Below the pieces are notes generated by a model. The model saw only the letters and a list, made by a program, of their open reading frames with translations. It ran no database searches and was not told the origin of the DNA. Both the position numbers and the translations under genes were made by a program. This document shows positions 3,001 to 63,083 of a stretch of 64,000 bases of DNA, in pieces. Origin of the DNA: Lytechinus pictus (taxonomy: Eukaryota); the NCBI RefSeq assembly GCF_037042905.1, contig NC_087251.1, positions 14,758,001-14,822,000 on the forward strand, given 5' to 3'. Position 1 is the stretch's first letter. Every line of letters starts with the position of its first letter.

Positions 3001-6000
3001 GGTTTGAAGATATTACGTAAAAGAGTCAGGAAAATACTACTCCTAAAATTACAGTGGTTGTTTTACATTATTTTTGGAGAACCAATTGTATGCATTTCAT
3101 TATAAATATTAAAGATTGTTTTTCGATGCCATAATCACTTTACAGACAAAAGCCCAATATATTATAAAACTGATAGGTGTTGTAAGAAACTGAATCAAAT
3201 TACCATTGTAAGACCTGGTTGCATGCCCGCTCTGACTGCTTCTATCTGTGTTGGAGTAAACTGGATGGCATTCCTGTGAACACAGAGAATATGATCAAAT
3301 AGAAGAGATATTTGAATCCCTGCATCACTAATACTTTAATAAAAAGAAACAAAAGCAGTTTATTCATAAATTTCAAAACATCATTCAGCTGTTGGAGCAA
3401 TCATATTCTCTATTAACTGCATATCAATGGCTAAGAATTTAAATAATGTATTCACAAAACCATAACGAAGTAAACCAAGCCACTGAGTTGCTTGGGGTTA
3501 ATATCAACAAATTATGTATCATATAGTACTCATTCGTGAAGTTTCTAAGAGCTTTACAAAATAATTAATAACATGAGGGAAGACAGCATAACAGAATTAA
3601 ATATATGAAATGATTTGTTTGAAGATTGAGGAGGGAAAAACAGTCTCCTTTCTTGAATACAAATGGTAACACTGTACATGTAGATGTGTATTTTTATGAA
3701 ATGATATAAAATTTTTATTATATTGACTGACTTTTTTGGTTGGTTGTATGGATAAGGGCCTCTGTTAGGAATGATGTGAGGTTCAACGATGATTTCCTTC
3801 TTGGCTATCATCGGAGTGGTGTCATCCACCTTACGTTTCTTTCCTGTAGAACCTCCTTTCTCAGCTTCTGGAAATGTTATCCTGCAGTCAGAGAAAAGGG
3901 AGGGTAATCTATCTCTCTCTTTACAAAGAATCATAGGATATCATACTTCTTACCCCCCCCCCCACCACCACCATCAACACCACCACTGCTGCTGCCGCCG
4001 CCGCCACCGCCGCCACCATCATCACCACCACCACCACCACTACTACTACTACTGCTGCTACTACTTCTTCCTCCACCTCCTATTCTTACTTCATTTTACT
4101 TCTCCTCATTATTTTCCTCTCTTCCTTATATTTTCTCCTCCTCCTTCTACTGTTCTTCTTCTGCTATACTTTTCACTCTCCTCCTCTCCTTATCCTTCTC
4201 TTTCTCCTACTTGTTATCATTCCCTTTCATCGTCTTCTGTAAAATTGTCTCCTTCATTCCTGTTTTTGTCCTTATTGTCTTCATCTGCATCTTCATCTTC
4301 TTCTTCTTGGTCTTCTATTTTCATCATCTTTTCCTAAGATTAACAGAGGTATTCTCATGCATATGCTTAAAAGTAAGGGTGAGGATTTAAATCTGAATAT
4401 GAGCCTTCAGTTGTTCAAAATCACAAACCTGAAAGGAGGCACTAATTTGGCTGGGTCATCGGTTATTAACTTGACCATATGGTCTGGGAAGCTAGCCCTA
4501 AGATGGTCAGCATTCAAAAATGTGTCGTTCCAGTCCAAAGTTGAAATCTGTTTGGCCATCCTGTAAAAAAAATGAGAAGAAATTATCAATTTCACAGTTG
4601 TAAATTAAAAGATGAAGGGGTTGAATAATTGATTTAAGTTGTCATGTTCTTTACATTAACTCTGAATATGAACAATTTTGATACCACTCTCGTACCATTT
4701 TAACATTCGGATTTCGTCATTATTAGAGTAAAATTTATTAGAATGGTATGGAATGTACATTGAAATCCTCAAATAAACACTATTGGTGAAAGTGAAAGGT
4801 GACTTGGATGTTTTAGCTAGATCATTCTGAAGCCAAACTGAAGAAAGATAGCATATCCATTCATATTGCTGTGGAATGAACCCTATCTCATCCACTTATA
4901 AAATAAACTTTGCTATTTCTAAAGATAACGCTAATTTTCAAGAAGAACAAAATGAAACAAAGTCTAAATCCTATTTTTTAAATGGTCGAGAAATTAAACA
5001 AATATATGAAGAAAAACAACCAATAATTTTACTCCCTGAACACAAACAACACACATATTACATTATATTGACCATAAACCCCAAGGAAATAATAATTTAG
5101 TTCTTACTTGGAGTAATGAGCTGCTCCTGGATCCCCATACCCTAGAAGAATATCATGTAACCAGTCAGGTACTACACAGTCAGTATTCATCAGGTCTCGG
5201 ATAGTCTCCAGAACAGCCTACAAGAAAGGATCAGACAACATTACATATGCATTACATCCAAACCTATGACATGGGACTGAGGAACTATTTTTATTTTCAT
5301 TCTGTTAAATGAAATGTCATCATCCTGGCTACTGTTGTAATCAGAATTTCAAACTTTTAGGTCAGACAGGAATAGATTTAGCTTTATAGACTAAACAGTC
5401 AGACAGGAATAGATTTAGCTTTATAGACTAAACTGTCATTCATACATGTTTATTCAGATATCCAGGATGGAAAATTCCTTTCTCGATAGGTTACAAGAAC
5501 TTTTCAATTCTTCTGAGAGGCAAGTCTCAGTGTGTTGCAAACTGGCCCTGTTCACACTACTTACATGCCAGCTGTGCACTCTCAGGCACAGTGTACAGCA
5601 AACCTTGATATTACTGGTTGGTTTTCTAGACAGCTTTAAACTACCATTTCATGTTAGAGTATCTGATGTTCTTAATCAGACACTAGGAAAATGCTTGGCA
5701 TACCTCTCATTCCATCAGAATCCAATTATTCTAATTTCAACAAAGTTAATTCATTTCTTTAATGAATGTTTCCACATACCTTGAAATTGTTTTCCTTTGG
5801 CTTCCTCCTCATCATGATATTAAAGCTCTCATAAGCATCCTCAGACCCAGAGGAAGCTGTCTTGGCCATGTCCTTCTGGTATTGGTTAGGGTCTAGCCAT
5901 ACTCTGTAGGTTCTAGTGATACCTGGTAGATCAGGCTTGGGTTCTGGACCTAAACAAAAATATAAAGAGTAAATATGTGACAACATATCTGAAAACATTA

Positions 6001-29868: not shown

Positions 29869-32320
29869 ATGGAGAAAACAACATATGACACAATCTGTAG
29901 TCTCGTACGAGGAGATTTCAAGGTACCACTTGCTGAACGTACAAGACCCGTGATCAATGCTTGTCGAAGGTACTACAGGAATAGGGAGCTTTACTAAGTA
30001 GATGAGGATGGGATCCTTTTTCTTGATGGGAAGAAAGTAGCCAAGGAATCAGATATCGATGGTCAGATCGACCATGCAATGACAACGAGTAAAGGCGCTG
30101 GTGCTCGCAAAATACAGCTCTGTATCAGAAACCAATTTCGTGGAATCAGTGAACGCAGGATCTTAAACAAGCTGGATAATTCTGAAACCTATCAAAAGTC
30201 AAAACCTAGGTTTAAGAATAAAGCAGTTGTAAGACCGATCCAAGCATTTACAGTTCATCGGCATCATCAGGTAGATTTAATAAACATGAGAGACCAAAAA
30301 GTCAATCACAAGGGAAAGACATACCACTATGCTCTGTCAATCATGGACATATTCAGTAGGTACGTCTGGTTGAAGCAATTGGTTTAAAAAACCAGTAAAG
30401 AAGTGGCCAACAGAATGGAGGAAGTCTACTTAGAACATGGACCCCTGCTTGTACTGCATCATGACCAAGGTGGAGAATTTTAAAAAGCCGTAAGGGAAGT
30501 GATGAACAGGCTGCGGGTCCAAATCATCAGCAGCTCGCCATACCACCCACAAAGCCAAGGCAAAGTTTCGAGGTTTATTTTGGCAGGAAGAACAATAACT
30601 TGGTCTCGGCAGAAAAAAAAAAAAGTCAGAATTCGTCACGAAAGTAGTAATGGTATTGTTCGACATACGCCAAGATAATCTGATTTGACAAAACTTCGGA
30701 GATGTCGAATGCGTAAAGCGGCTGCTAAAGCTTGTCGTCGCATTGCCGAACGCATGGTTAACAGATTTATTCGTAGAAATCCACCATCTATCTATGAAAA
30801 GTGGGAGATGGTCCTCGTAAGAACGAGGCACGGCAAACATCACGAGCCCAGAAGATATCAGGTTGTCTCAGGAGTGATCCTCAGGCATAATAGGAAGCAC
30901 CACCGATATCTGGTGAGATATACAGGCCATCCAGACAACAAAACCATTGAAAAGTGGTTTCCTGTACAAGATATAACTAGTATCACAGTCGAAAAAGGCA
31001 CCAGACATGTGCCAAGTCTCTAGAAGAAAATCTAAGGGAACTCTTTTAATTCCCAAAGAATAGGCTGTCGGAAATTGGTCGCCCGATTCGTTATAATCCA
31101 CAAGGAAACGGCAATTGCCAATTCGAGGCAATTGTTGACCAATTAAGAATGCATGGTATTTATCGTTCTGTCGAGGCTTTAAGGCATGAGATTGTCAGCG
31201 ATTTGGCAATCAATCCGTACGACATGACTGGAACTTACTTAGGAAATTTTGTAGATAACACGGATTTCCAACGTTATGTGGAAAATATGGCAAAAGATGG
31301 TTCTTATGGTGATCATCTCGTCCTGCAGAGAGCGAGTGAGCTGTATAATGTTAACATAATTGTGGTTTCATCGATTGGCCCGCACGCAAATGCTATTATC
31401 TCGCCTACAGGGTTTTTTCAAGACTGCTCACCAACAATTCTGCTCGGACATTTCGCTGAAGGTCAAGAAGACCACTATGTCAGTCTGGTGCAGACACCTT
31501 CCGAAGTAGAAGCTGTTATCAATGAAAGCAACAATATATACCGACTTGACAACTTAACGACACAGGATACATCTTCGTCAGATGTTTCTAATGGATTACC
31601 TGATGATCTTTCTAACAACACAGAACGTACACTATCAGTGACGCCAGAAAGCTTCTTTGATATTGACTCAGAAAGTTCATTGCCGATAGGCCTACAGCAA
31701 GAAAGTCAAATGTTTTCGGTATCTCCTCAAAGGTCTATTGTCTCGTCGACTCCCGAGAGTTGTCGGTCTGCGCAACAGGATAGTCCTCATTCTCTTCCGC
31801 CCCAAAGTCCCCTGTCTGTCCAGCTAGAAAGTCCACTTTCTGCGCCTACGGAAAATCCTCTTTCCGTCCCTCTGGAAGTCAGAAAAGAAAGGTCCCAGCG
31901 CATCCAATCAGTTAGCCGATTGTCAGATATGAATTAGACTGCCATCATGAAGCAGTGGCGTCAAGACTACCTCCTGAAATTCTCCAACAGATTATAAGGG
32001 AAACCTTGTTTCTTGATATGGGAATGATTGGTATATTTAATCGCGTGTCTGCAACATTTAAGGAGCTAACAGCTTCAATGTATCCATCATTGCATATCCA
32101 TGCATCCCTTAGTAAAGAACTCGATATTGATGGCTGTAACAAGAGAGCTATTAGCATCAGAAAAATATACACTCGTTCAGGAAAAGGAAGTGGACTGTCC
32201 TTGAGACTTAAAGAATTGTTTGGATCAAGATCCAATTGGATCAATGACTGGTTACTCTTAACGGCCATTAAGTATTCGAGATTTATCATAACGGATATCT
32301 ATTGGAAGAAAGAGCGTTAA
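29869..32320 (+). pseudogene. Decayed transposon polyprotein: Ginger/KRBA2-like DDE integrase + SH3-like tail + OTU cysteine protease + S/P-rich linker + F-box-like C-terminus
   Basis: One frame reads through three TAA stops (29995, 30385, 30481): HQVDLINM...YALSIMDIFSRYVWL..KTSKEVA...HG..VLHHDQGGEF...SSPYHPQSQGKV. Then FEVYFGRK, PPSIYEKWEMVLVR...KWFPVQDITS, the OTU motifs GNGNCQFEAIVDQL (Cys 31116) and EDHYVSL (His 31473), and LPPEILQQIIRETLF...NRVSATFKEL. Confidence 0.85.
31050..31937 (+). CDS. OTU-domain open frame within the transposon relic
   Basis: Stop-free frame containing the OTU Cys motif, YVENMAKDGSYGDHLVLQRASELYNVNIIVVSS and LLGHFAEGQEDHYVSL; no ATG upstream of the Cys in this frame. 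Confidence 0.6.
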   Translation, partial: FPKNRLSEIGRPIRYNPQGNGNCQFEAIVDQLRMHGIYRSVEALRHEIVSDLAINPYDMTGTYLGNFVDNTDFQRYVENMAKDGSYGDHLVLQRASELYNVNIIVVSSIGPHANAIISPTGFFQDCSPTILLGHFAEGQEDHYVSLVQTPSEVEAVINESNNIYRLDNLTTQDTSSSDVSNGLPDDLSNNTERTLSVTPESFFDIDSESSLPIGLQQESQMFSVSPQRSIVSSTPESCRSAQQDSPHSLPPQSPLSVQLESPLSAPTENPLSVPLEVRKERSQRIQSVSRLSDMN

Positions 32321-47903: not shown

Positions 47904-48042
47904 CTAATCTTCTGTCCTTTCAGCACCTTCTGGTACTAAATGTTTGAGGACACCTTTGAAGAACATCCCTGAATCCTCAAGACCAGGCTGGAAACATTGA
48001 TCTAACCAAACAGTCCTGTACTCTTCCATCATACTCAATAAC
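47904..48042 (-). CDS. ANK-GH20 terminal coding exon (LLSMMEEYRTVWL...ERTED*)
   Basis: ccag acceptor, in-frame TAG. Confidence 0.85.
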
Positions 48043-51000
48043 CTGGGTAATAAAAAGGGACAGTAACATCATGGTAAACGACCATAATTAAGTGCATTTG
48101 TACGTAAAGTTCCGAGGGTAGAATGAAAGTTTTGAAATGTACATTGTAAACTCAAGGGTCAACAGAAAACAAGCAATCTCGGCTTTCATGGGATATCCTA
48201 TCAGGGCATTTGAAACTCCCAAACCTTCTTTGGGTTATGTATTGTTATACAATCAGGGTATATCAACAAAAAAAGCTTTCTATGCATCATTCCTGGGGGT
48301 GTCATGGTCTAGTGGTTTTGACTCTCATTTTTCAATGTCAGAGACATGAGTTTGATCCCAGCCATGGCATGTTTTCTTTCAGCAAGGAATTTACCCACAT
48401 TGGTTGAGTGGTGAATGGGCTGGGCTGCCTGGGCACTCAAGAATTCAAGGAATGCTTCAGTGCCTAGGCAGCCCAGTTAAAGCCAGGGTAAAAATAATAG
48501 CAGGGCATACTGGGAGAACAGTTTTCGGAACTGAAGTGGCTACGCTGGGTAATTAATGTTCTTATTATGAAATTAAATGTGTACTGTAATCTCAAATCTA
48601 AGATTGAAAACTATTGGGCACCATTTGAGCAACCTGCAAGATAAAAAAATATTGAAATACATGTAATTTCTCAAAATTAACTATATTTGGCATATCAGGG
48701 CCAAAATGACTGTCTTGTTTCATTTTGTTTTTCAATTTTAAGCCTGGGCATCTGTATTATTTGTATTCATTAGCCATTATTTTACCGATTCATTAGAGAA
48801 ATTCTATTGGTTTAAAAAATTGAAAACCCCAGAAGCTACAGATACATATCTTGACACAAATAACATGGACCACAGCTAATTAATAACCTGGGAATGCATT
48901 CCTGAACATTTGTCATCTTGCTAACTCTCCTTGATTTTCAAAGGCTAAGCACAGGTGTCAACTGTTACTATGGTAACTGTCAGACCAAACATCAGACAAG
49001 TACTTTCATTAAATACTCCCTGGAAAACCTGATGTTTTTCAAATTGGATTTTCAAACAGATTGAAAAGGTGTGAACTATCCTACTTCAGCAAAAACAAAA
49101 TGGAAAAAAACACAATGAAAATCAATTTAAAAAAAAAAAAAGTCTGAATATCTATATGCTTACTTATTAGCTGAATCTGTCTTTGTGGTGGCAGATAGGT
49201 TGGCAAGTCCTACGTTGATGACATTGAAACCACTCTGGGCATGGTTGGGTTTCTTACCAGTAATCACTAAAGCTCTTACAATCCTAGGAAGAAAAAAAAA
49301 TGTATGTCAAGGTATATCTCTCTTGGTGCGAAGGGGATTTGCTTGTTCCAATTTTTTTAACTCTTAACAATGGATACCTCTAAAACATCTACACTCTCTA
49401 TTACAGTAAATTCTACATTACTTTTTTAGTGATTCTAAATATATGTAATTTATTCAATTTTATGCAAGACAACTGGGCTTGATACATTTTGTAAACAACT
49501 TCCATTACATCCTATATCGTTTGCTTTGATGACTTTCTACACACATTGTATTTTTTCTGTACTGATATGCTTGATCCATATAATTCAAGCACACTTAAGC
49601 ATTGTTCAAGTTTCTATATTGCAATGACAGAATAGAAAATTTATCAAAGTTGTCTCTTTGTTCATTCCTGCAGTTTAACAAGAATAAAGCTAGTTTGCAT
49701 TAAATAATATAATTATGACTACCATCAATGCCGCAGTTGGAAAAGCAGAGTAAGATAATCCCCAAGTTAATTTTTTCATGTTGCCCCTCTTACTTGATTC
49801 AGCATTTAAAGCATTGATACTTACTTGCAAGCCCAGAACATCAAGTCAAGAGTAAGATGAACCTGAATATAAACCCTCCTGTCGAGCTTGAGTTTATCTA
49901 CAGCATTCAGAGAAGTTTGTGACTTGCGTATCCTTCTCATGGCAGTCTACACAGAAGGAAAAGAGAATTAGGAACTGTGAAGATGGTATCGAACCAAGAT
50001 GAGGCACAAAGAGAAAACCAACCCTATAAAAGATCAGTGGGAGGGTGGTATGAGTCCACCAATAATTCACAAATACAGACCCATCAACCTCCTTTCTAAC
50101 ACTCCCATCCACGTAACCAATACAGTCAACATCTAGTCATAATACTACCACCATGACTCTAGGACAACTCACATTGATGACTTCGAGTGTCATGAACTCC
50201 AGATCAACACTGTCCGTATCCTGGATGACCCGACAGAGGAAGGAGCCCTCTTTGGCCGGTATGACCACTGATTTGTGAGTGATGGGTAGATCTAGTTGAT
50301 TGAGTGTTGCCTGGGTGAGGTAGGTATCGATGCGACCGACTTCAAGGATAGCTTCACCAAGCGGTGAGTCAGGGTCCTGTAGCATGTGACGATTGATCAT
50401 TGCAGACAGGTTGCAATGGAGAAATTCCTGCAAGAAACCAAACAACAATACTACTTGATAGCAACATTTTTCATTTTGGGTCTAAAAATTTGAACACCTT
50501 GAAAAAAAAATATATCATTCAAATGTACATTGTATCTTTTGCAACCTCAGTCACAATTGCAACAAAAAAATAATTATTATTAAAAAGGGATAAGAAATTT
50601 GAAGCCTGTTGCATGAAATGGTTGCATGAAATGCAAGTCCCAAATATTAGCTTTTGGTTGGCTGAAAACCAAATGAAGTTTCAATTTTTAGTTGCATTTG
50701 ATTGAAATTCTTAACAAACCCCTGGTCGTGTGGTTTGATAGTGGAAGAAGAGGCATATACAAAGGACTACACAAAAATGTTTAGCCTAAATTCTTCAGCC
50801 ATTCCTTGTCATATCTTGACTGACGGTACAACAAGAGTAATCTCATTGATCAGTAAGAGGTGTGGAGTGCTTCTTATGAGTATGATCTAACCAATGTAGT
50901 GATGCATTATATACCACTCACAACTGATAGATAAAGGAAGATTTTTAATTCCACTTAAATCTTTGTGAACACCCTCCCCCCTTTGATGATGATGGTGATG

Positions 51001-54000
51001 GTGGTGATGATGATGATCATCATCATCATCATATAACTCACCAGAGGTGTTGATGCATTCCAAGACAGGCCTGCTGCAGCGATGTAACCTGGCCAGCTAA
51101 GTACTGGATGATTGGAGTAAGTACAACCAGCCCAGTTGGTCAATAGGAGACCAATGGCATTGGGGTTTGTAGTAGCTGTCTTGATGGCATTAGATATGTT
51201 ACAGATAGAGCCTTCTGGACCACCACCCAAACTGAAACAAATTCATAGATGTAAAAAATTATAAACAATATCAAAAGAAATGCAAATTAACATCAAATTC
51301 AAACCATAGAAAATATAAATATATGTATCACAACAGTAGTGTAAAAGATTGTAATTGATAATTTGACCAAATTAAATTACTATGAGGACGTGCGTTCAAA
51401 TTACAAAAGAATGCAATAAATGATAAATGAAGTATAATGAGATTCTAACCTAAGTAATCACAAATATCACTGAAGTACTAGTCAGTCAAAAGAATGTAAC
51501 TGTTTAAAATGATTTACATAATCACCAGATCATAGAAAATATGTGTAAAAATATTAAACATTTCAAGGGCAATTAGTTGTAATATCATTCTGTAAATAAA
51601 TAAAACTTGTTTAAAAAAAAAACACATAACTTGAATGTAGGATATGGATAAACCATTCCCCTTTTCTATCATAATGTAACATCTAATTCCTGATATGCAT
51701 TCTGCAAGAGCACAGTTTGAAAAGATTAAATAGAAATAAAGAAACCTACCTATTCCAGACACCTGTTCCAGGGCACACATAGAAACCTTGTCTGAAAGGA
51801 GAAGATGAAAAATTAGACCAAAAAATGTGCTAAATGAAAATAAAGCATTCACATATCAACTCAGCCTGCTTAAAAACTTTGAGTGGTATTCTGATACTTA
51901 AACTGGGGTGTAACTTCAGACTAAATTGAAAGTTTAATCCACAGGTTTACGGAATGTCGAGCTCATCCTCCTTATTCAACATTCATAATAAGATAGTGCA
52001 TCAAATAATTCACTGTGAACTCAACCAATCCCTTTTCTTTTTCATTTAATTTAAAAAATAATTGTTTTGGATAACTTTTCAAAAGGGGATTAAAATAGTT
52101 TGTATTTGGTTAATGAATTGGCAACTGACATCCATCAAAGCAAGCAAGAGAGATATGGGGAGGGGGAGCAAGTAGTCCTATTGCAATCAAGAATATGTGA
52201 CTGGGTACATATAACTTACCCACTTCCAAGTAGCTTCTTTCCTGACTTCTGAAAGTCAGAGTTGCTCTGGAAAGAAAATAACCCAGGTTACTTTTAAAGG
52301 GCTGAATTAACATTGTACAAATAGGATAATTTTACTTCTGATCAAATGAAACCAACATAACCAATAATGTCAGAATGTCTAAATAAACGAAAGACAATAA
52401 AAGCTTACTTTACACCGTGCTTGCAATTTAAAGGCATTCATACATTATAATACAGGAAGTGTGTGAAGTTACCAAATCTATCCTCCTATTCTACACTTGG
52501 CTATTGCATATTATCAGATAATTAATAATAATATTATTTATATAGCGCACGTATCCACCTTGTAAGGTGCTCAAGGCGCTCCTATATTACCCCAGCTATT
52601 AAGAGTCTACCGAATTCGGTGCTCACAGCTTTTAGAGGAAATACTACCTGACGGTACCCATTTACCTCAATCAATTTAACATCATACAGTAGTCAGCAGA
52701 GAAAGAATGAAGATATACAACTCTACACACACAAGATATCATATAGAATGTCCGTACAAGAGTCCTTATACAAGGGTGTATTGTTTTACACACCAATGCT
52801 TATCAGATGATCAAGGTGATTTTCATGATACAATATATGACAAGAATTATATGTATAGGAATCATCGCACAAGGGTATTATGGCTTACATACCCTTGCCT
52901 CGGAATCTCATCTGAACAAATGGTTCAGTTACTCTCTCTGCTCCAACAAAATGCCAAACTAATGATCTTAAAGTTCAGCAAGATTTGTATAAGCAGATAT
53001 CATCCACATACAATTTTTTGTAAATGGAATGGGTAATTAAACATGAGAAAATAATGATCTGCTCATTTCATATTTATTAGAGTGGAAACAATGATATTGA
53101 TAATTCCAAATACCATAATTATTGGATCAAACAAAGCTTATAATGAAGAGGAATCACACAATGAATGTCAATATTGATAGAATGCATGTTCAGATTTGAA
53201 AACACTTGTGCTCTGTGAAAATGACTAAATTTTCTGGGAGTTCCATTTCCATAATTAAATCCAATAATAGCACTAATACAAGAATAGCACTTGGAAAACG
53301 AAAGTGCCCAGGTGTACGAACAGAAAACTATTCCTCGCATTTAAATATAAAAAGGAAGGCACAATAGAAAGCATGCAAACAACCATTACAAATATTGTCA
53401 ACAGAATTTCATTGACCATGTAGAATTTTTCAAACTGGAAAAGGCAGTATAAAGTGCAACTTACTTTGGAGCCATACAGCATAGCTACACTTCCTATGGG
53501 GAGTTGTTTGAAGCTGGTCTCATATACAGAGATAACATTAGCACAGAAGAGTGCTGTTTGATTCCTTCCAACGCCTATCAACCTCAGTTGATCTTGTATA
53601 CTTAGAATGAATGGTGACGGTCTTGGGAGTTCTACTTCATCCTCTTGTACTACTGTCATACAGAAAAAAGGATGATCGGTCTTTCAAAACATATCATTAA
53701 ATCATAATATAGAGACGTTCTCATATCAGAAAAACAGACAAATAATGAAAACTAATCAGCAATTTGCACATTCAACATTTCATTCTTTTCATTCGTTTAT
53801 TAGCATGCAATGGAACATTCACATTTCTAAAGAAAATAATGCACATTCTTGCCTTCCTAAATGACTTCTTTGAATTTTGCTTTCATGCTGACAACATCCA
53901 TGAAAACATTCTTGCATTACTAAAAAGATGTTTACTTTCACACTTGCGCATTCTCAGGTATCATTCCCTATCAGCAGGAGTAAACAAGTATACCGAATCT

Positions 54001-57000
54001 TTCTCTACTCAGATTACTGTATATACCATTTTATTGCTTTTTCTTTATAAAGATTAACAAATCAAAGTTGAGTTTGGCTGATTTACTGAGGATTTCTTAG
54101 CTGTGTGGTCAGGGATCCATAACACAAATGTTTGCAATGGATAGGAAACATCAAGTATGAAAGGACGACATTGATTGGTTTCTCACCAATGTTTTATACA
54201 AATAGTGCATATAACATTGATCTTCAATTGATCACCAGACTTCTAGGTTTACCTTCTGCTTCTGGTTCCGTCTCTGTTTCTCCAGACTCTGTCGTCTTGG
54301 TGTCCGATGATTCCTTCTTTGTAGTAGGATCAGGTGTCTTTGACTGATCTGTTGAGGTGTTTCCATCTTGTGGTGTTTCTGGACGAGGGCTTGGAGGAGG
54401 CACTGAATCTAACAGCTTCCTTGTCAAGTTTGGTCCAATGTTCACAACCCTGCAACACACAAAGCAAAAAAAAGTAGAAATGCATTTGGTTACCATAGTG
54501 TACAAAGGCATCTAAACTTTGCTTTAAGACACTCATTAACAATGATCATTTTAATTTACAAAGATCAAGAGCATTTCATCAACATTTCTTGTCCAACAAG
54601 TTGTCGGATCTGACAACTTTCCTTGATTTTAATTTGCTGAGAAGCACTGTTACTGTAGTATAGGTAACTGTCAGATAAAACAAACTTTGTTGGATAACAC
54701 ATCTGACAAGTACTTTTATAAACCGTTCCCTAGATTCCAACATGAACTGATGGGAATCACTCTAATTTAGCAGCTAAGAAAAGGTCACAGATCGTGCGTA
54801 ACATGCAAACAACATCAAGTCTGAATCAATACTTTTAAATCAAAGAAACAAAAATAAAAAAGCTGGCTACTAGATTTTTTTTCCTTGATGCTTCATTATA
54901 AAAGTTTGAGTTATATATGTCCTGTTGTTATATTATCTTGCTTTTTTAATAGTTCTTTTATTCTGATATTGCTAAACCTATCAGAATATGTTCCCTCACT
55001 TGGGTAGCCAACTCGACAAAACTTGACAAGCCAGCTGGCTTTAGTTAACTTTTCCCTTAATTCCTTTCTTACATGTACAGTGTAATTATCATATGTGTAC
55101 ATGTACACTGTAATTATCATATGTGTGTGCATGAACCAAGGTTTATTTAACGAGTGTCTTCTTCCTCTTCTTATTTACATTGTTTGTATATACACACTGT
55201 GTTAAATTCAATATGGAATTAGGGATAAATGAACTTGAAATACATGCATGGCTCTTACTTTGTGGATCCAAATCTTGATAGGACTTGTTGGAAGATTGAG
55301 AAGAGAGGAGGTGAAAGGTCACTATCTTCCATCAGATCAATGTGAGGAACTAACTTGATGAACCTCCACTGACAAAACACTTCCAGGTCAAGCAATTCAC
55401 TGCATGAGATCAATATAGGAGTTGAAGACTCTTTAAAAATGTTTAATGTGACTTCCAGAAAATGTCACAAACTGCATACATATAATTCATTATTCCATGA
55501 AAAACAAAATGCTGAAAACAATGCAAAGAACTGAATTATCAATTCTGATTGAAAATAATATAAATTAAAAAAAAACTTTGGTTGAAAAATTACCTTCCAG
55601 AATATGGCATGGTGTCATGTATAGGACTATCCTTGTATGCTTTCACATACAGATGAAGCTGTGGTGGAAAGGAAAATCAGAATGAAACAATGAAGTTAAT
55701 TTGGTGTCATATGTTTTAAATACAAGAGCAATACTTATCCGTATAGTTAGATTATTCTAAACAAAGGATATGTGACAGTCAGTGTTTTTGTTTTCCTTAA
55801 AATTACCATTTTCATTATCATTTCATCACCATCACTGTTCTTATTTAGTGTGGAAACAGCACATTTTAGCAAGCATCCCAATCAGCATCTCTCTAAGAGT
55901 CTTTCCACTATGAAAGGAATGAAAAGATGCTTATAAGGATTCCCACTGAATGATGTGGTCCAGACTTTCTTATTGCTTACCTCATTGTATTTGAGCTGAG
56001 CAAAACTATTCACAAGTTGAAGTAGAGTATCCTGAAAATGAAAACAATAACTCCAATTACAAACTTGATCATAGGTTTTATGTTCTATCCAAGTATACAT
56101 TTATTTACATAATTGAAAACAGATGAGCATGCAATCCATATAAATATCTAGTTTGTTTTTCACCCATCACCATAAGTCCCTTGCTTTTTTTTTTTTGAAA
56201 TTCTGATTCTTATCCTTAAGAAAAAAAGTCAATATGACTATCAACTAATCCAATACTATTAAATAAACTATCAACTAATCCAATATTATCAAATAAAAGA
56301 GATACTGTAAACCTTGTAAAGGTCAATACTTCTAGTCAATGCAAGAATCTTCTTTTTGATATGTTGTTTCACAAAAACTCAAGTTTGACTAAAAGTCATG
56401 CTAAACATTCAAAATCCATGTAAAAGTGGTATGATATGAATTCAGGGAACATTTGGTCAATTTTAAGGTGGGTTTTTGTTCTCACTTTCTCCCAAACAAA
56501 ATTTGTGAATGGTCTTTGTTTTAACGATCGTTTGAACATCAGTTAATCATTTTGACTCGGGTGAAACACCACTCTGATACATGAAACTAACTCACCATCC
56601 TTGGTACTCTGCCAGCTGATAAGTCTAACATGACAGCTCTATGTTTGATGCTAGGCCAATCAGATATCTAGTAGACAAAGAAATATGAATAGTAACATTA
56701 AAATATTCATCATCTTTGTGTAAGATTTTCATTCGTATGGATCTGGATGTGTGTGATTGCTTTTGTCTCTTCAACTGTCTGATGAAAGATGTATGCAGAA
56801 AAGAAAATAATCACATACATCCAGATCTAGACTTGGTTACATTCATATATATGCAGGTTGCTGTTTTTCTTTGATATTTTTAGTTACATCATGTTATACT
56901 TTAATTTGAATTATTTTTATAATTGATTACTGATTTTACTGTCTTTTTGTAATAACTTTCTTGTTATAGGGAATACATTTGCTAAATTGATTTGATATCT

Positions 57001-60000
57001 ATATCTTTTTTTTTAATTCATAATTGTAAAGTGCATAGATAATTACACCAGTTATCATGTACTTGATAAGTATCCTCTACTATTATTATCATTAAGATCA
57101 TAATTACAGATTAATTCCTGGTAAGATTGAGAGCCCTCTCTTGGTAATGTTTATAGGCTTGACTTACCTCAAGCTGTGGAATGCCATCCTTGTGACAGAG
57201 CTGGACCAACTGAACAAATGTACTTGTAGCATGCCATAGACCTGGAAGATCAGCAGCAACGATCGTCACCTGAAGGTACAATACGAAAAAGGATTGGTTA
57301 TTTTTTTTTTTTTTTGGTATCACCTCCCCCCCTTCCAAATGGCGGCTCATGGATTTCAAAATTACTTCATGTTTATAAACCCCAGAAAATATCATGGTCT
57401 CATTCATGGGGAAAATTAGGGATATAAAGTATATGAATCTAAGTGCTTCCAAACACTTTCAAATTGTCTGTTTCACTAAAGCTCATCTCCTAAATTAAAA
57501 CAAGTTTCATCAGACTTGACTACCATTATCTCACTCACACTCAAAAAACTGCAGCTATCAATCCTATAATAGCAAAAAAATTTGTTTTATTGGTCAGAGT
57601 CACAAATGTACACTTGTTGGCATGACATGGTCAACATAACAGTAGCATATAAAGAGTACAAGCAGTTTTTCCAATGAAGCCCAACTGCAAGTTTGTATCA
57701 AAACATGTACAAAAAGTTATTATCAATTGTACATGTAAATATAATTGTACAAATGCTATGTTAAAAAGGCTTATCTGCCATCTTCTCTACATATAACCTT
57801 TACCACTTTGTTACTTGGCAAAGAAGGGCATAGATCTGAGCTGTAGGATCTATGCACACTATGAAGTCCTTCAAAACACGATCTCTTTAGCCAGAATTCA
57901 CTAACGTGGTTTTGAAATCTATCGATTTAACTCATGGTTTATGCATATTTCATGTCCAATGCTGATGCACTCTTTTGTCATAGAGCACCAAAGTGGTGCC
58001 TGTTGCCATGGTTACGAATGCTACTTTATTAATGATTCCACTGTTTTGACCATTGGACTCATAAATTAAAAACAGTTGACTCATGAATAAAATAACGTTC
58101 TTAACCACGGCAACAGGCGTCAATTTGACAGACCAAGAATTGGTTACGAAGAGGTTACTTACCATCTTTTCACTGACTGATAACCTATAGCTTTCCTCTC
58201 TGCAGAATGGTAGAGGGTTGATAGTACAAACAATCTGAGCAGTAGGATCTAGGCATACTACAGAATTCTCCAAAACACAACGATAGCCTTTCTCCATCAA
58301 GACGGCTGACTGGATCGTCCAGAGGTCAACCATGGGTTCAAGGGTACCTGTACACGCATACATTCGTAATTCCGAAGCTTCGTTATTCCGAAGGTTCGGA
58401 TATTCCGAAGGTTCGTTATTCCAAAGGTTCATATTTCCGAAGGTTCGTAATTCCGAAGGTTCGTTTTTCCGAAAACGAAGTGAGGTTCGTAATTCCGAAG
58501 GTTCGTTAATCCCAAAACAAAATGAGGTTCGAAATTCCGAAGGTTCGTTAGTCCGAAAACGAAATGATTAACGAACCTTATTTCGTTTTCGGACTAACGA
58601 ACCTTCGGAACAACGAACCTTATTTTGTTTTCGGATTAACGAACCTTCGGAACAACGAACCTTATTTCGTTTTCGGATTATCGAACCTTCGGAATAACGA
58701 ACCTTCGGAATAACGCCACAAATGTTCGGATTAACGAACCCTTTTACGTTTTCGGATTAACGAACATCGAGGTATAGGCAATTTACGTGTTTCGGAATTA
58801 CGAACCTTCGGAATAAAGAACCTTCGGAATTACGAAGTGTAACCCCTGTACAAGGTCAAATTAATCAACTACCATGTTGAAGCTAGTATAAGTTGATAAA
58901 TGGTGTCATTATTTTGCATCATTTACATATTTTGACAGATGTAAAATGAACTGATTAATGAAGAGATCAATGCTGAACAAAAAAAAATGGTATTTATATT
59001 TAATTGTCATATTTTTGTTGTAGATTCGGGCAATGTTTGGAAAGAATTTGTCTCAATAACTTTAATGTTATGCATTTTCAGATATTCAGAGCTGCAACCG
59101 AATTTGGATCAAAATTGATAAAACATCTTGAAATATATCTTATATACTTCTTCAGATGCAGACATTCTGGAATCGTATAAAAAGAACTAAACAACAAATG
59201 AGAACTCGTTCTAATCACTTTTATAACCCTTATTATCGTCTTTATCATTGTGTCAATCAATGCCTCATCACCAAGCTAACCCCTAATAAGTCTCCTGCAT
59301 TCATTATTATCTTTTATGATGTTCATGTCTATATTAATGTTACTTTACACTAATTTATGTCAACTTCATTTATCATATGCTCAATTTCTATCATTGATGT
59401 TTGTAAGCATTTAATGAGCTGTCCTCATAACTGTTCAATTCTGAGATATAACATTTCCTAAAAATGAAACCAACTAAAATTCAAGTCAGTCATCACCTGA
59501 TTGAGGCATAGCTGCTAGTTGTACACTGAAATCCTGGCTAAGAGTAAATTTGTTTCCATTCTTCTGGACAAGCTGCTGAGGTTTGGGCCAGAGAAAGGCC
59601 AGCCTTGGGTCTTCTTCAACATCCTCCTCCTCCTCTTCCTCTTCTTCTACAGTCTCCACCTCAACCTCCCCGTCATCTTCCTCATCCTCGTCTTGGACTG
59701 ATGATGATACTTGAGGACTCGCAGCCTGCACAGAATATTTTCCATAAAACTATCATATATGAATTCATTTCATATCACTTGTATACTACGGCCACTTTAT
59801 TGAATTCACAATAGAGGAATAAAATTTCAAAATATGTAAATATAGAAAGTTGACAGTTTAGGTCATGATACATTACTTGTCAAAGTTCTCAAGATTTCTT
59901 CAGATTTTATTTGATATACAGTGCGTATCAAAAAAAAGTTTACACTTTGAAAAAGCACTGGGAATTAAAAAATATACAACATATGGGTAATTTTTCCACA

Positions 60001-63000
60001 TATAATCTTGGGTTTGGGTCTCATCTATCCAATGAAAGTAAAAGTTTTGTCAGAATGTTACACTTGAGTGAGCACTGTCCATTTTTGTAAAGCTCGTAGA
60101 AATCTGTTTGCGCAAAAATGCTCGTTTTCACACTGTGTCAAGGGGAAAGGGCGAAATCAAACTTACCCTGCGAAACATTTCTCATACATTTCCCTTGCAC
60201 TTTTAGTCAATTGAAATAAAACGGATACATTCAAGCATTTTGTAACAATTTTGTCACCCAAATTGAAATTTCAACACTTAGTAAGCACAACCTTTACCCT
60301 TTTTGAGGACATAACTTAATCTGAACAAAAGTTTATATCAGACATCTCCAGCATTTTTTCACTAAGTTTTTATAATTGAATGTGGGTTTACATTTCATTT
60401 TTCATTTAATACTTGTTTCTCCACACTTTTCCCAAGCTTGGCAATGATTAACAAAATGAAAATCAGGCTTAAGCCATTCCATGTAAATCACAGCTCAGTG
60501 TAAAGCAAATATTGTCATAATGGCCTCGGTGTGTGGGGGAGTGGAGTGGGGCAAAATGCACTCTTTAAGGTGTTTTGGGCAAGGAAACAAATCAAAAAAA
60601 GCAAAATATATCTTCAAATAAATTTTACTAGCAAAATTCCACGTGTTCTTCATGATTAAGGTCTACTTTTATTCGCATAACTATTTCAAAGTTCTGCGCA
60701 AATTATCATTTTTCACTAACTTTTCAAAAGTAAGTGGTGCTCACTCAAGCGGAAATATTTTTCGGCAGTTATATTGTCATTTGCTTAAATGGATCTGTAC
60801 CAATGTTAAAATGTGGAAAATCTTCAAGATATTACAAATGTATAATTTTACAGGATTTTTTCAAAGTGTAAACTTTTTTTTGATACGCACTGTATATACT
60901 GAGTTTATAATACAGGAATGAATTTTACAACAATACATAGACCTATTACTGTCAATGCAAGGCAGCAAATTGAATTTAAAGTAAACACATTACAGATGGT
61001 TCATACATGTGAGCCTGTGTAAATATTCCCAAGTAGATTGGTTCTCCTTACCTCTGGGGTTGTAGTAGAATCATCCTTGACAGATGAATCCTTCTCTTCT
61101 TCAGTCTTGACCTCCTCCAAAGTGACTGAAAAGAAAGGCACATCTACACCTACGTAAAACATAACATTACTCAACCTACTCTACATTTTAACATGAAAAA
61201 ATAACATATCAACAGACTAAACAATATAAGCTTTTAGAGCATGCAAGGGCATACCAGTTTAATTTGCAAAATTTGAAATCCCTTTAAATTGATTTGAAAA
61301 ATTTGTCGGCCATAACCTCCATGATTTTTTTTTTGGGGGGGGGTGGTCATTAGCAAAATCACTGACGTTTAGTATAGTCAAAGCAGTCCAAATACCTTCT
61401 GTTATCACCTTGGTTATGTCAGAAATTTAAAAATTTCCCTGTGTAATTCATTAAATTCCCTGACTAATAATAAGAATAAAACACTCACTATCTGCATCAT
61501 CAGATTGCTCTACTGTTTCACCATTCTGTCCATTCTCTGCGTGTCCATTCATGATGACTGGTGGGACTAATACATCTTTCAGTTCTTGACTATCCTCTGC
61601 TAAATCTAATGGACTCTTTCCTTCTGATTTACTAAATGGCATGAAAACAAAACAGCAAATATACATTAAATCATTTGAAGATGACAAGGCAATAACAACT
61701 GTGCACCTAGGAATAGAATATTTCTAAATAGACAGAATCACAAAATGAAAATTTTGTTGTTTCTTTCATTGTCTGTTTTTGATGAAACCAAGTTGATGTC
61801 AGGGTAAACTTCCCCTTTGAATTAAAGGCCTCATGTTCAATTGACTTTGTGTACAAAACCTCAATGAGCTTTGATGCTGGGCCATCCTATTCCTTTAAGA
61901 ATTTACTCACCCTCCTGTTGCTTTAGCATTGATGTCTGCACCCCCTGCAACCAGCTCCTTCACAATGTCAACATCCCCCCTCAAGACAGCATCATGTAAG
62001 GGTGTGGTCCCATCGGAATTAGTAGCGTTCACATCTGCATTGTGCTCTATATAAACATGACATGAACAGCAAATCAATTCAAAGATTCAAATCACATAGT
62101 ATCAATGGGGGATTTTAATGAATTTGGTAATTTGAATGAAAATCATCTGCGATCATCATCAACTAGCCATAATCTATCAAATCATTCAATGTCTTACAGA
62201 AAAAATATGTGTACATGTTAATGAAACACTGATTTAGTTCAAATGATTTTCAGACAAGCTGTAGAGGCATTCAAACTCAGTTATGAAACCATTCTGTTGT
62301 TAGGTATCCATCCAATAAACTAAATTTAATTTGTTTAACATTTCAATCAACAATCATTGTTATTAATATCATTTTATATATCAAAACAAATGAAATATCC
62401 ATATTGAGAGATAATATCTGCATAAACATCAAACATGGAAAAAAAACTATTAAAATAAATTACATATTAATACAAACAAAAAATATTCCAATAGCCAATT
62501 GATTTATTGAAGGGCAATTGGCAAGTGACCAGAAATCTTTGATAATAGCATTCTAATTTTCATCCTTCAATTGTATCAACCCAATGTTGCCAAGAATTAA
62601 ATTCAAGATCTTTCAATTAACGAGAATCTCTTGGAAACCAATGCCTCGAAAATCAATCTAAATTCGGGATCTCTTATACACACATAAAAACAACAAATGA
62701 TCTGAGATTTCATTTAATTTATACAGATTGGCATTATTTGAAATGAAATTAAATAACCATCACAGTTATGAAGATAGACTGCATTTCAAAGCACTTTGGA
62801 GGCCCAGTTTATACAAAATCATATGAATGGAAATATAATAATAAAAAACAACCTTGAAAGATATGTATTGTGTCTTTGTGTATGTACTGTACATGTCTAG
62901 TAGGATTAAGGTGAACTGTGTTCTAAATAAAACTTTTCATTTCAAGCCTTACCTAAGAGTATTTTGATGATTTCTAGTCCTGAGAAGCTAGCTGCCCAAT

Positions 63001-63083
63001 GTAGGGCTGTATTGCCCCCTGTTGCTTCATCTTTATTATTGATATCAAGACCACTATCTAGAAACTGCTTCACTTGCTCTGCC
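47904..63083 (-). CDS. Ankyrin-repeat protein fused to a degenerate GH20 (beta-hexosaminidase-like) fold; 5' end outside window
   Basis: 20 phase-consistent GT-AG exons. ANK motifs GNTALHWAA, GTTPLHDAV, GKSPLDLA; GH20 domain-2 motifs LWPKPQ and ESYRLSV..VTIVAADLPGLWHATSTFVQL; barrel motifs ISDWPSIKHRAVMLDLSAGRVP, LKYNELHLY, FIKLVPH, FYVCPGTGVWNS, GLLLTNW; stop TAG at 47906-47904. Confidence 0.9.
48295..48560 (+). mobile_element. Degenerate tRNA-derived SINE
   Basis: TGGTCTAGTGG A box, gagtttgatccc B-box remnant. Confidence 0.6.
49164..49283 (-). CDS. ANK-GH20 exon (IVRALVITGKKP...TKTDSAN)
   Basis: AG/GT, 120 nt, phase 2-2. Confidence 0.88.
49825..49946 (-). CDS. ANK-GH20 exon (TAMRRIRKSQ...LDLMFWAC)
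   Basis: AG/GT, 122 nt. Confidence 0.88.
50173..50427 (-). CDS. ANK-GH20 exon (EFLHCNLSAM...MTLEVIN)
   Basis: AG/GT, 255 nt. Confidence 0.88.
51042..51231 (-). CDS. ANK-GH20 exon (LGGGPEGSICNI...GLLLTNW...GLSWNASTPL)
   Basis: AG/GT, 190 nt. Confidence 0.9.
51750..51791 (-). CDS. ANK-GH20 exon (QGFYVCPGTGVWN)
   Basis: AG/GT, 42 nt. Confidence 0.88.
   Translation of the reverse strand, partial: TRFLCVPWNRCLE
52220..52266 (-). CDS. ANK-GH20 exon (SNSDFQKSGKKLLGS)
   Basis: AG/GT, 47 nt; required for phase. Confidence 0.82.
53465..53652 (-). CDS. ANK-GH20 exon (VQEDEVELPRP...MLYGSK)
   Basis: AG/GT, 188 nt. Confidence 0.85.
54253..54449 (-). CDS. ANK-GH20 exon (VVNIGPNLTRKLL + low-complexity insert)
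   Basis: AG/GT, 197 nt. Confidence 0.85.
55259..55399 (-). CDS. ANK-GH20 exon (ELLDLEVFCQWRFIKLVPHIDL...RFGST)
   Basis: AG/GT, 141 nt. Confidence 0.88.
55594..55658 (-). CDS. ANK-GH20 exon (LHLYVKAYKDSPIHDTMPYSG)
   Basis: AG/GT, 65 nt. Confidence 0.85.
55981..56031 (-). CDS. ANK-GH20 exon (DTLLQLVNSFAQLKYNE)
   Basis: AG/GT, 51 nt. Confidence 0.88.
56596..56667 (-). CDS. ANK-GH20 exon (ISDWPSIKHRAVMLDLSAGRVPRM)
   Basis: AG/GT, 72 nt; GH20 signature. Confidence 0.9.
57168..57269 (-). CDS. ANK-GH20 exon (VTIVAADLPGLWHATSTFVQL...IPQLE)
   Basis: AG/GT, 102 nt. Confidence 0.9.
58163..58347 (-). CDS. ANK-GH20 exon (TLEPMVDLW...ESYRLSVSEKM)
   Basis: 185 nt; acceptor duplicated by the adjacent MITE. 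Confidence 0.85.
58355..58844. mobile_element. Foldback-type MITE built from tccgaaggttcg tandem units, 8-bp TSD
   Basis: Left half and right half are inverse repeats; cctgtaca at 58347-58354 and 58845-58852. Confidence 0.9.
59497..59725 (-). CDS. ANK-GH20 exon (acidic tract, then DPRLAFLWPKPQ)
   Basis: AG/GT, 229 nt. Confidence 0.88.
59919..60892. mobile_element. Tc1/mariner-type non-autonomous element
   Basis: TA|CAGTGCGTATCAAAAAAAAGTTTACACTTTGAAAA ... inverse|TA. Confidence 0.9.
61052..61125 (-). CDS. ANK-GH20 exon (TLEEVKTEEEKD...TTPE)
   Basis: AG/GT, 74 nt; required for phase. Confidence 0.82.
61489..61631 (-). CDS. ANK-GH20 exon (KSEGKSPLDLA...SDDAD)
   Basis: AG/GT, 143 nt. Confidence 0.87.
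61911..62046 (-). CDS. ANK-GH20 ankyrin exon (HNADVNATNSDGTTPLHDAVLRGDVDIVKELVAGGADINAK)
   Basis: AG/GT, 136 nt; canonical ankyrin repeat. Confidence 0.92.
62953..63083 (-). CDS. ANK-GH20 ankyrin exon (AEQVKQFLDSGLDINNKDEATGGNTALHWAASFSGLEIIKILL)
   Basis: AG/GT, 131 nt; ankyrin repeat. Confidence 0.92.

Follow-up and report, generated by a model that had tools for sequence, protein, structure and literature searches.

Ankyrin-GH20 proteins of animals, represented by a gene of Lytechinus pictus, have lost the hexosaminidase active site that choanoflagellate forms retain

We analysed a 64,000-nucleotide stretch of the sea urchin Lytechinus pictus (NCBI RefSeq assembly GCF_037042905.1, contig NC_087251.1, positions 14,758,001 to 14,822,000; hereafter the window), in which a minus-strand gene encodes ankyrin repeats joined to a glycoside hydrolase family 20 (GH20) module without its catalytic residues. 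This loss is common to the animal members of the family. In contrast, choanoflagellate proteins of the same architecture have intact sites, which places the ankyrin fusion before catalytic death and catalytic death on the animal stem. The animal protein is almost certainly not a canonical hexosaminidase and would be expected to lack hexosaminidase activity; on balance, it is probably a cytosolic adaptor or scaffold. An initial annotation, made from the letters of the window, had described a catalytically dead hexosaminidase. The family-wide loss supports that description, although the annotation did not see the intact-site orthologues, which date the loss.

Gene structure and predicted fold

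The gene has 20 coding exons between 63083 and 47904, bounded by AG/GT; joined, they give an uninterrupted frame of 884 aa. The reconstructed product is identical at 883/883 residues to RefSeq XP_063958086.1 (P0034, L. pictus LOC129264901 X1), whose residue numbering is used throughout. Residues 1-77 of P0034 are encoded upstream, outside the window, in further 5' exons.

63083-62953, 62046-61911, 61631-61489, 61149-61052, 59725-59497, minus strand: exons 1-5 in the window
58347-58163, 57269-57168, 56667-56596, 56031-55981, 55658-55594, minus strand: exons 6-10
55399-55259, 54449-54253, 53652-53465, 52266-52220, 51791-51750, minus strand: exons 11-15
51231-51042, 50427-50173, 49946-49825, 49283-49164, 48042-47904, minus strand: exons 16-20
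47906-47904, minus strand: stop codon

The gene is intact and spliced. Between 51040 and 58380, 9/10 modelled introns have CT..AC joints among those listed from aligned reads and contigs. One contig of run X1, which is presumed to be RNA and has a depth of about 7, joins 55658-55594, 55399-55258, 54448-54253 and 53652-53465 with nothing between. The direct joint of exons 11 and 12 is supported by this single contig of a single run, and the 55259/54449 joint was absent from the joints listed for three raw RNA runs, which cover the exons thinly. A six-frame scan of the window found 4 GxDE strings, just 1 of them within the gene span, where it is a chance match on the plus strand. Among the 27 full-length members of a 29-member urchin cluster (2 fragments excluded), all 27 read LVP[HT]IDL...NIGPNL and none contained GxDE. 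A missed exon supplying GxDE, which the initial annotation had proposed as a refutation of its own reading, was ruled out by the RefSeq identity, the direct contig joint and the lack of a usable GxDE in the gene. Because the deletion of the FGH loop described below is internal to one exon, a missed exon cannot account for the loss of that loop either.

The encoded protein is organized as follows, where pLDDT is the predicted local distance difference test of an AlphaFold model.

61562..63083, minus strand: ankyrin repeats, residues 78-190 (Pfam Ank/Ank_2, E about 1e-25; pLDDT >90 in most blocks)
59612..61561, minus strand: acidic disordered linker, residues 191-285, 39% D+E, poorly conserved
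56650..59611, minus strand: GH20 domain 2 (GH20b), residues 286-425 (PF02838, E 1.6e-11, above cut-off)
51048..56649, minus strand: GH20-fold barrel, residues 426-748, with a remodelled active site
53621..54400, minus strand: S/T/E-rich 60-aa insert, residues 546-605, sea-urchin-specific and disordered
47907..51047, minus strand: helical C-terminal domain, residues 749-961, GcnA domain III-like (VIA alignment to 2epk)
49166..49180, minus strand: T911-D912-x-A914-N915 (TDxAN) motif, near-invariant in animals and choanoflagellates

Pfam, AlphaFold, Foldseek and VIA together bore out this architecture, which had been read initially from the sequence as ankyrin repeats, an acidic linker, GH20 domain 2, a GH20-like barrel and a helical C-terminus. 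The AlphaFold model had a mean pLDDT of 86.4 and a predicted TM score (pTM) of 0.72, with the linker (pLDDT <50 at residues 193-271) and the insert (S+T 28%, D+E 27%) disordered. The GH20b domain precedes a (beta/alpha)8 barrel, indicating GH20 fold and descent by PF02838, Foldseek and VIA, and a helical domain III lies behind the barrel as in proteins of the GcnA/GH20C type. The best Foldseek matches were GH20C and GcnA (E about 4e-16). VIA returned Z scores of 26.5-27.8 for many GH20 and GH84 entries, among which GcnA/GH20C had the longest span, including the helical domain. Against 2epk, the Z score of 27.6 was level with those of other GH20 and GH84 entries, with a root-mean-square deviation of 3.9 over 495 aligned residues that covered model residues 313-959 and extended up to chain residue 580. 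The PF00728 catalytic-domain profile had no match to P0034 at E 0.01, nor to urchin P0001-3 at E 1; it scored above cut-off in Priapulus, coral and choanoflagellate orthologues. NCBIfam gave just ankyrin cross-matches plus NF041654, all well under cut-off. No signal-peptide-like or membrane-like hydrophobic stretch was found by a simple hydropathy scan of P0034 and P0002, consistent with the intracellular location initially suggested, and the protein is predicted to be cytosolic.

Loss of the active site

The remodelled site of the L. pictus protein is defined by five features.

56608..56625, minus strand: DLSAGR, with D434 retained and the substrate-binding Arg replaced by A437 (56616-56614)
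55259..55399, minus strand: exon LVPHIDL...SRFGST, from which the FGH motif and roughly 35 aa of loop are deleted
55338-55336, minus strand: D503, an animal-specific acidic residue
54425..54442, minus strand: NIGPNL in the H/N-x-G-x-D-E slot, with N536 for the polarising Asp and L537 for the acid/base Glu
51126..51134, minus strand: W720-A-G722, with the platform Trp retained and the O4/O6-binding Asp replaced by Gly

NIGPNL stands exactly where it had been annotated (54442-54425), and the adjacent Asp-Glu pair of active GH20 enzymes is missing. In the AlphaFold model, strand 530-533 is followed immediately by a helix starting at P535. The equivalents of the Arg (R94/R162) and the Asp/Glu (D375/E444) of subsite -1 in active GH20s are A437 and G722. 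The Arg had been called Ala-shifted: it is indeed gone, but it has not moved, and R439 was rejected as a shifted substrate Arg because it matches a separately conserved position two residues past the Arg, where 43 intact relatives have K (31) or R (12). We also rejected E506/D507 as a substitute acid pair, since it is poorly conserved (E 5/54, D 10/54 animal rows). The FGH motif is missing after LVP, as expected from the annotation. The 60-aa S/T/E-rich insert highlighted with it is present but confined to sea urchins; what the family has in common is the loss of about 35 aa (P-to-G span 35 vs 60-80). The annotated MLDLSAGR, VCPGT.xWNS and GLLLTNW motifs are all present in the reconstructed protein, the second as VCPGTGVWNS.

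The alignment register was anchored on an intact relative, P0017, whose MLDVSR/FNVGCDET aligns with MLDVSRH/LHIGGDEA of SpHex, and in a profile of 48 non-ankyrin rows the two subsequent Trp positions line up with solved GH20s. W-x-Y and W-x-D were mapped to the GH20C pocket residues listed in Table 2 of PMC11308363 by motif and spacing rather than direct alignment. Relative to GH20C, the Asp-to-Trp spacing is 44 vs 44, that of the last two Trp 65 vs 67 and the middle one 23 vs 40, the last being 26 in T. suis HEX-2. For P0031 and part of P0017, no GH20C alignment was obtained for the second barrel half. GcnA/GH20C has intact R94, D222, E223, W266, W306, Y308, W373 and D375, whereas the urchin protein retains W373 alone (1/8). 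Its aromatic acetamido cage (W266, W306, Y308, W373) reads C631, Y654, S656, W720, with 1/4 retained.

We then quantified pocket loss over a 102-row alignment of 54 animal-clade rows (25 named), 5 protist-type rows and 43 non-fused rows, the last hand-picked from search matches and few of them named. The catalytic Glu occurred in 0/54 animal rows and 43/43 non-fused rows, with Leu in 47 of the animal rows, so that the loss of the Asp-Glu pair is common to the family, the point that the orthologue alignment proposed in the initial annotation was meant to test. Likewise, the Arg was retained in 1/54 animal rows, the polarising Asp in 2/54 (N 12/54, R 13, C 5, others), the W266 equivalent in 3/54 (Cys in 36), the W306 equivalent in 0/54 (Tyr in 41) and the Y308 equivalent in 5/54, each compared with 43/43 non-fused rows. 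The D375 equivalent was found in 2/54 vs 41/43 rows and the W373 equivalent (W720) in 44/54 vs 43/43. Each animal protein retains 0-3 of the 8 pocket residues, while 41/43 non-fused rows retain 8/8. Among 64 nematode matches, none contained [HN]xGxDE and 38 read PNL as in the urchin. Nematodes P0104, P0113 and P0159 have also lost both Trp residues; W685 and W720 persist outside nematodes.

Order of events

Ankyrin-bearing proteins with intact pockets were found among the choanoflagellates. Salpingoeca kvevrii P0089 and Monosiga P0119, and also P0102 (a EukProt record without an organism), carry the ankyrin module as in animals together with 8/8 pocket residues. The choanoflagellate proteins (S. 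kvevrii P0089; Monosiga brevicollis XP_001749485/A9V9R8) are orthologous in architecture, have TDxAN and are sister to animals; unlike the urchin protein, they match PF00728, and P0089 retains the FGH loop. Because these fusions retain all 8 pocket residues, the ankyrin fusion came before the catalytic loss. Coral and sponge members show intermediate states: in coral P0076 the loop (span 70) and the Asp are still there and Leu has replaced the Glu, and the sponge Sycon reads Asp-Gln at the catalytic pair. The result is a graded series from intact sites (Salpingoeca, Monosiga) through loss of Glu with the loop kept (coral) to deletion of the loop (bilaterians), so that a change from enzyme to scaffold at the origin of animals could be tested directly, C. 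elegans P0253 being open to genetics.

Phylogenies were consistent with this order. A FastTree of 96 rows showed species-like branching within animals. In an IQ-TREE of 45 rows with loop, insert and pocket columns removed, support by the Shimodaira-Hasegawa-like approximate likelihood ratio test (SH-aLRT) was 100 for animals, 97 for animals plus choanoflagellates and 96 for all ankyrin-fused rows, which nest among non-fused rows. A mixture-model tree of 30 rows with the TDxAN region also removed, made by a quick search, gave 98 SH-aLRT for animals plus choanoflagellates and left P0102 unresolved beside two unnamed non-fused rows. The root was placed on two divergent non-fused rows. In the 45-row tree, the animal stem branch (0.44) and the bilaterian stem branch (0.28) are long and were followed by fixation of G-P-x-L, and branches are also long in nematodes and sponges. 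Parsimony on the mixture-model tree implied two losses of the intact site. The second, separate loss lies in choanoflagellates, where Diaphanoeca grandis P0094 retains 3/8 pocket residues and its sister P0133 retains 5/8, with lesions that differ between the two.

The nearest non-fused kin are an uncharacterised clade of bacterial-type GH20s of about 600-680 aa (Promineifilaceae P0014, Planctomycetota P0027) rather than HEXA/B, with matches at E down to 1e-43 and an Atlas score of 0.95. This clade shares CPGTxxWNS, MLDxS and TDW with the urchin family, but has an intact site, no ankyrin module and no TDxAN. A bacterial origin of the ankyrin-GH20 lineage is likely. P0095 and P0112, counted in the bacterial-type clade, are non-ankyrin, intact-site proteins that branch beside the ankyrin-fused clade; they may be eukaryotic, and may be protist forms that predate the fusion.

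Comparison with streptococcal GcnA/GH20C (PDB 2epk/2epn, 5a6b) shows the same GH20b, barrel and helical domain III and the longest profile match (80-625 of 628 positions), although identity is 10-15% and GcnA/GH20C lacks an ankyrin module. HEXD/HEXDC and nematode HEX-2 to HEX-5 (GH20 subfamily 1, clade B) have a GcnA-related barrel and helix bundle, but are active enzymes without ankyrin repeats. As described in PMC11308363, HEXD is nucleocytoplasmic and a catalytic motif near the N-terminus is a trait of subfamily 1, whereas the urchin motif lies at 532-537, behind the ankyrin and GH20b domains. T. suis HEX-2 (8QK1) was not among the listed structure-search or profile matches. The protein also differs from lysosomal HEXA/B (subfamily 2), as it has no N-terminal hydrophobic stretch and its site is lost. 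Assignment to a HEXDC/GcnA-like branch was sound with respect to the GcnA-like fold, but HEXDC was imprecise, the kin being the bacterial-type clade and the choanoflagellate fusions. Two eukaryotic GH20 clades are described in PMC2492878, with clade B (HEXD) reported absent from Monosiga. Since the ankyrin-GH20 family occurs in Monosiga and has other nearest kin than clade B, it probably adds a third eukaryotic GH20 lineage to those two, according to trees that did not include HEXD.

Possible functions

Outside the pocket, conservation is concentrated in the helical and ankyrin domains. T911 is conserved in 51/52 rows, D912 and N915 in 52/52 each, and the ankyrin residues D30, R33, W107 and R144 in 41/41, 40/41, 44/46 and 44/45, respectively. 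These near-invariant residues are the most strongly conserved of those specific to eukaryotes, and choanoflagellates have most of them too. Of 178 rows screened, TDxAN was present in 44/50 with ankyrin repeats and 0/108 non-ankyrin rows bearing xDE. Tandem ankyrin repeats with conserved surface residues are what an ankyrin adaptor would show.

These patterns point to a cytosolic pseudo-glycosidase in which the ankyrin repeats and TDxAN would offer binding surfaces to a conserved partner and the dead GH20 would serve as a platform, the function that we favour. A bacterial-type GH20 with GH20b, barrel and helical domain III would have been fused to an ankyrin module before the choanoflagellate-animal split. 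That form was probably an ankyrin-targeted cytosolic beta-N-acetylhexosaminidase; we propose ancestral activity because the choanoflagellate forms have intact sites, and they may themselves be active. Loss of the Arg, the His and the acid/base Glu would have come first, on the animal stem, with the loop and Asp disappearing later. The protein would have been retained since its protein-binding surfaces matter, with the ankyrin repeats and TDxAN helix recruiting a conserved partner or docking the protein against itself or against a second copy. The barrel would act as a rigid support, its former pocket having become apolar (P535, L537, C631, Y654, W685, W720). The dead GH20 module may be dimeric, because domain III is the dimer interface of GcnA as reported in PMC4449183.

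Several points weigh against an adaptor. The scaffold role and its partner are predicted from conservation patterns, and structural needs by themselves might explain why the TDxAN and ankyrin residues are conserved. Motif and spacing served to place the last three pocket positions. Moreover, the pocket has not merely decayed: L537 (47/53), Y654 (41/51) and W720 (44/51) are conserved, as are W685 (39/51), R439 (43/51) and P535 (37/54), and position 503 is D/E in 52/53 animal rows vs 0/43 non-fused rows. These conserved residues also fit a new ligand site.

Other glycosidases have kept their barrel after losing the catalytic acids and then bind glycans or proteins, including the GH18 chi-lectins, XIP-I, the GH13-like ectodomain of 4F2hc/rBAT and the GH1-like domains of Klotho. 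Dead glycosidases serving as scaffolds or lectins are thus already known from other families; these are extracellular or lumenal, whereas the urchin protein is GH20-derived, ankyrin-fused and apparently cytosolic. By analogy with pseudo-enzyme lectins such as the chi-lectins, the dead pocket might read cytosolic N-acetylhexosamine (HexNAc) on O-GlcNAc proteins or free glycans, with the ankyrin repeats relaying the signal. The ring-stacking W720 in 44/54 rows and an aromatic at the W306 position (Y 41/54) would suit such a reader. So would the Asp-to-Asn change, the classic substrate-trapping substitution with which SpHex D313N and CpOGA D298N were solved with ligand, and which is found in urchins and in all 54 pattern-matched nematode rows. 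Table 2 of PMC11308363 further indicates that T. suis HEX-2 is active with a Gly at the D375 position. However, the site has lost its Arg, His and Glu and the counterparts of W266 and Y308, N occupies the Asp site in just 12/54 animal rows, Cys or Ser forms the wall of the acetamido pocket, and nematodes lose both Trp. Binding residues have gone together with catalytic ones, unlike in a pseudo-enzyme lectin. Because the polar sugar-contact columns vary freely, holding 11-18 different residues across animals, we consider this role quite unlikely, and the GlcNAc/GalNAc reader of the initial annotation fares poorly with 7/8 GH20C pocket residues lost.

A pocket repurposed for a different small molecule or peptide, or for other chemistry, via D503, R439, Y654, W685 and W720 is also unlikely, though it merits slightly more weight. 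The acidic residue at position 503 lies at a barrel strand end, and the long stem branches preceding G-P-x-L fixation are compatible with a change of function. Yet the D503 equivalent is the Asp of P-E-I-D in classical GH20s (SpHex), so it may be structural, the neighbouring E506/D507 pair is poorly conserved and several animal lineages lose the aromatics. A broader version of this idea is possible but doubtful: a third, bacteria-derived GH20 lineage, active in some choanoflagellates, would have become a non-enzymatic receptor at the origin of animals, its pocket (D503, R439, P535, L537, C631, Y654, W685, W720) binding a new cytosolic ligand and signalling via ankyrin and TDxAN. If true, this would be an undescribed enzyme-to-receptor switch on the animal stem, for which coral and sponge provide living intermediates and C. 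elegans an orthologue. It is very improbable that the protein is a still-active hexosaminidase through a missed exon, minor isoform or re-positioned Asp-Glu pair. The automatic hexosaminidase names on coral and Trichuris members and the single contig behind the exon 11-12 joint leave some room for it; the 27/27 urchin isoforms and the gene itself without an encoded GxDE, the deletion inside one exon and a loss common to 54/54 animal rows do not. A decaying remnant or annotation artefact might explain the thin read depth in three RNA runs and the long nematode and sponge branches, but is barely credible given that the frame is open, the splice sites are canonical, the RNA is spliced, the tree is species-like and many phyla have orthologues. 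In comparison with S. purpuratus, identity is 117/120 and 131/143 in the barrel vs 77/93 and 41/57 in the linkers; the barrel is thus more constrained than the linkers and the gene is not decaying, so that conservation effectively refutes this reading.

Distribution and naming of the family

A search of 50% representatives gave 2289 matches at E <=0.001, of which the best 150 were used. Orthologues were retrieved from echinoderms, hemichordates, Priapulus and molluscs. Names looked up for 20 matches included amphioxus, crinoid, louse, millipede, copepod, nematodes, a nematomorph, corals, two sponges and three choanoflagellates, with four matches lacking a name. A nematode query gave 64 matches, including C. 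elegans P0253, for which an Atlas look-up returned generic ankyrin clusters (0.78). Overall, ankyrin-GH20 orthologues occur in at least 10 named animal phyla. No named vertebrate, tunicate or Drosophila protein was among the listed matches, but 29/54 animal-clade rows are nameless, so absence is not implied.

The combination of ankyrin and GH20b is already on record as automatic database labels. We found no paper describing the family, its catalytic loss or the intact choanoflagellate forms in the literature searched, which lacked most subscription journals, and the Monosiga accession A9V9R8 had 0 occurrences in the main text of PMC13390413. These proteins therefore appear to form a gene family that is widely conserved in invertebrates and has gone undescribed; within that literature, they would be the first GH20 pseudo-enzyme to span a whole family.

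Wrong automatic names were exposed on several members, the names including beta-N-acetylhexosaminidase, Tankyrase-1 and EIF3k. The coral P0076 cluster and Trichuris P0294 are named beta-N-acetylhexosaminidase or Tankyrase-1, and the coral proteins read HVGLDL, without the catalytic Glu. In many nematode models, from Trichinella to Ancylostoma, the ankyrin-GH20 gene is fused to an eIF3k domain (PF10075), and C. elegans P0253 is recorded under the name 'EIF3k'. The pattern suggests that a position next to eif-3.K is conserved across nematodes and that a wrong name has been propagated. We take the C. elegans gene to be T16G1.9, an unconfirmed identifier under which no paper was found in the literature searched.

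Other features of the window

The window is intron-rich eukaryotic DNA with 30-43% GC in 2-kb bins. Several further elements were observed within introns of the gene or elsewhere in the window.

58360-58850: intronic element of TTCCGAAGGTTCG-like units in a long inverted repeat, resembling a miniature inverted-repeat transposable element (MITE)
52535-52598, 54570-54690, 57960-58125: short intronic repeats
29998-32320, plus strand: open reading frame (ORF) cluster, with an OTU-like cysteine protease at 31050-31937 (PF02338, E 1.4e-9)
3554-3940, minus strand: exon of an Aquarius/IBP160-like gene (PF21144, E 1e-4, under cut-off)

The short intronic repeats have many partly matching RNA reads on both strands and are multicopy and transcribed on that evidence. 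The ORF upstream of the OTU-like protease is integrase-like by eye, with no Pfam match, and the cluster at 29998-32320 is probably a transposon.

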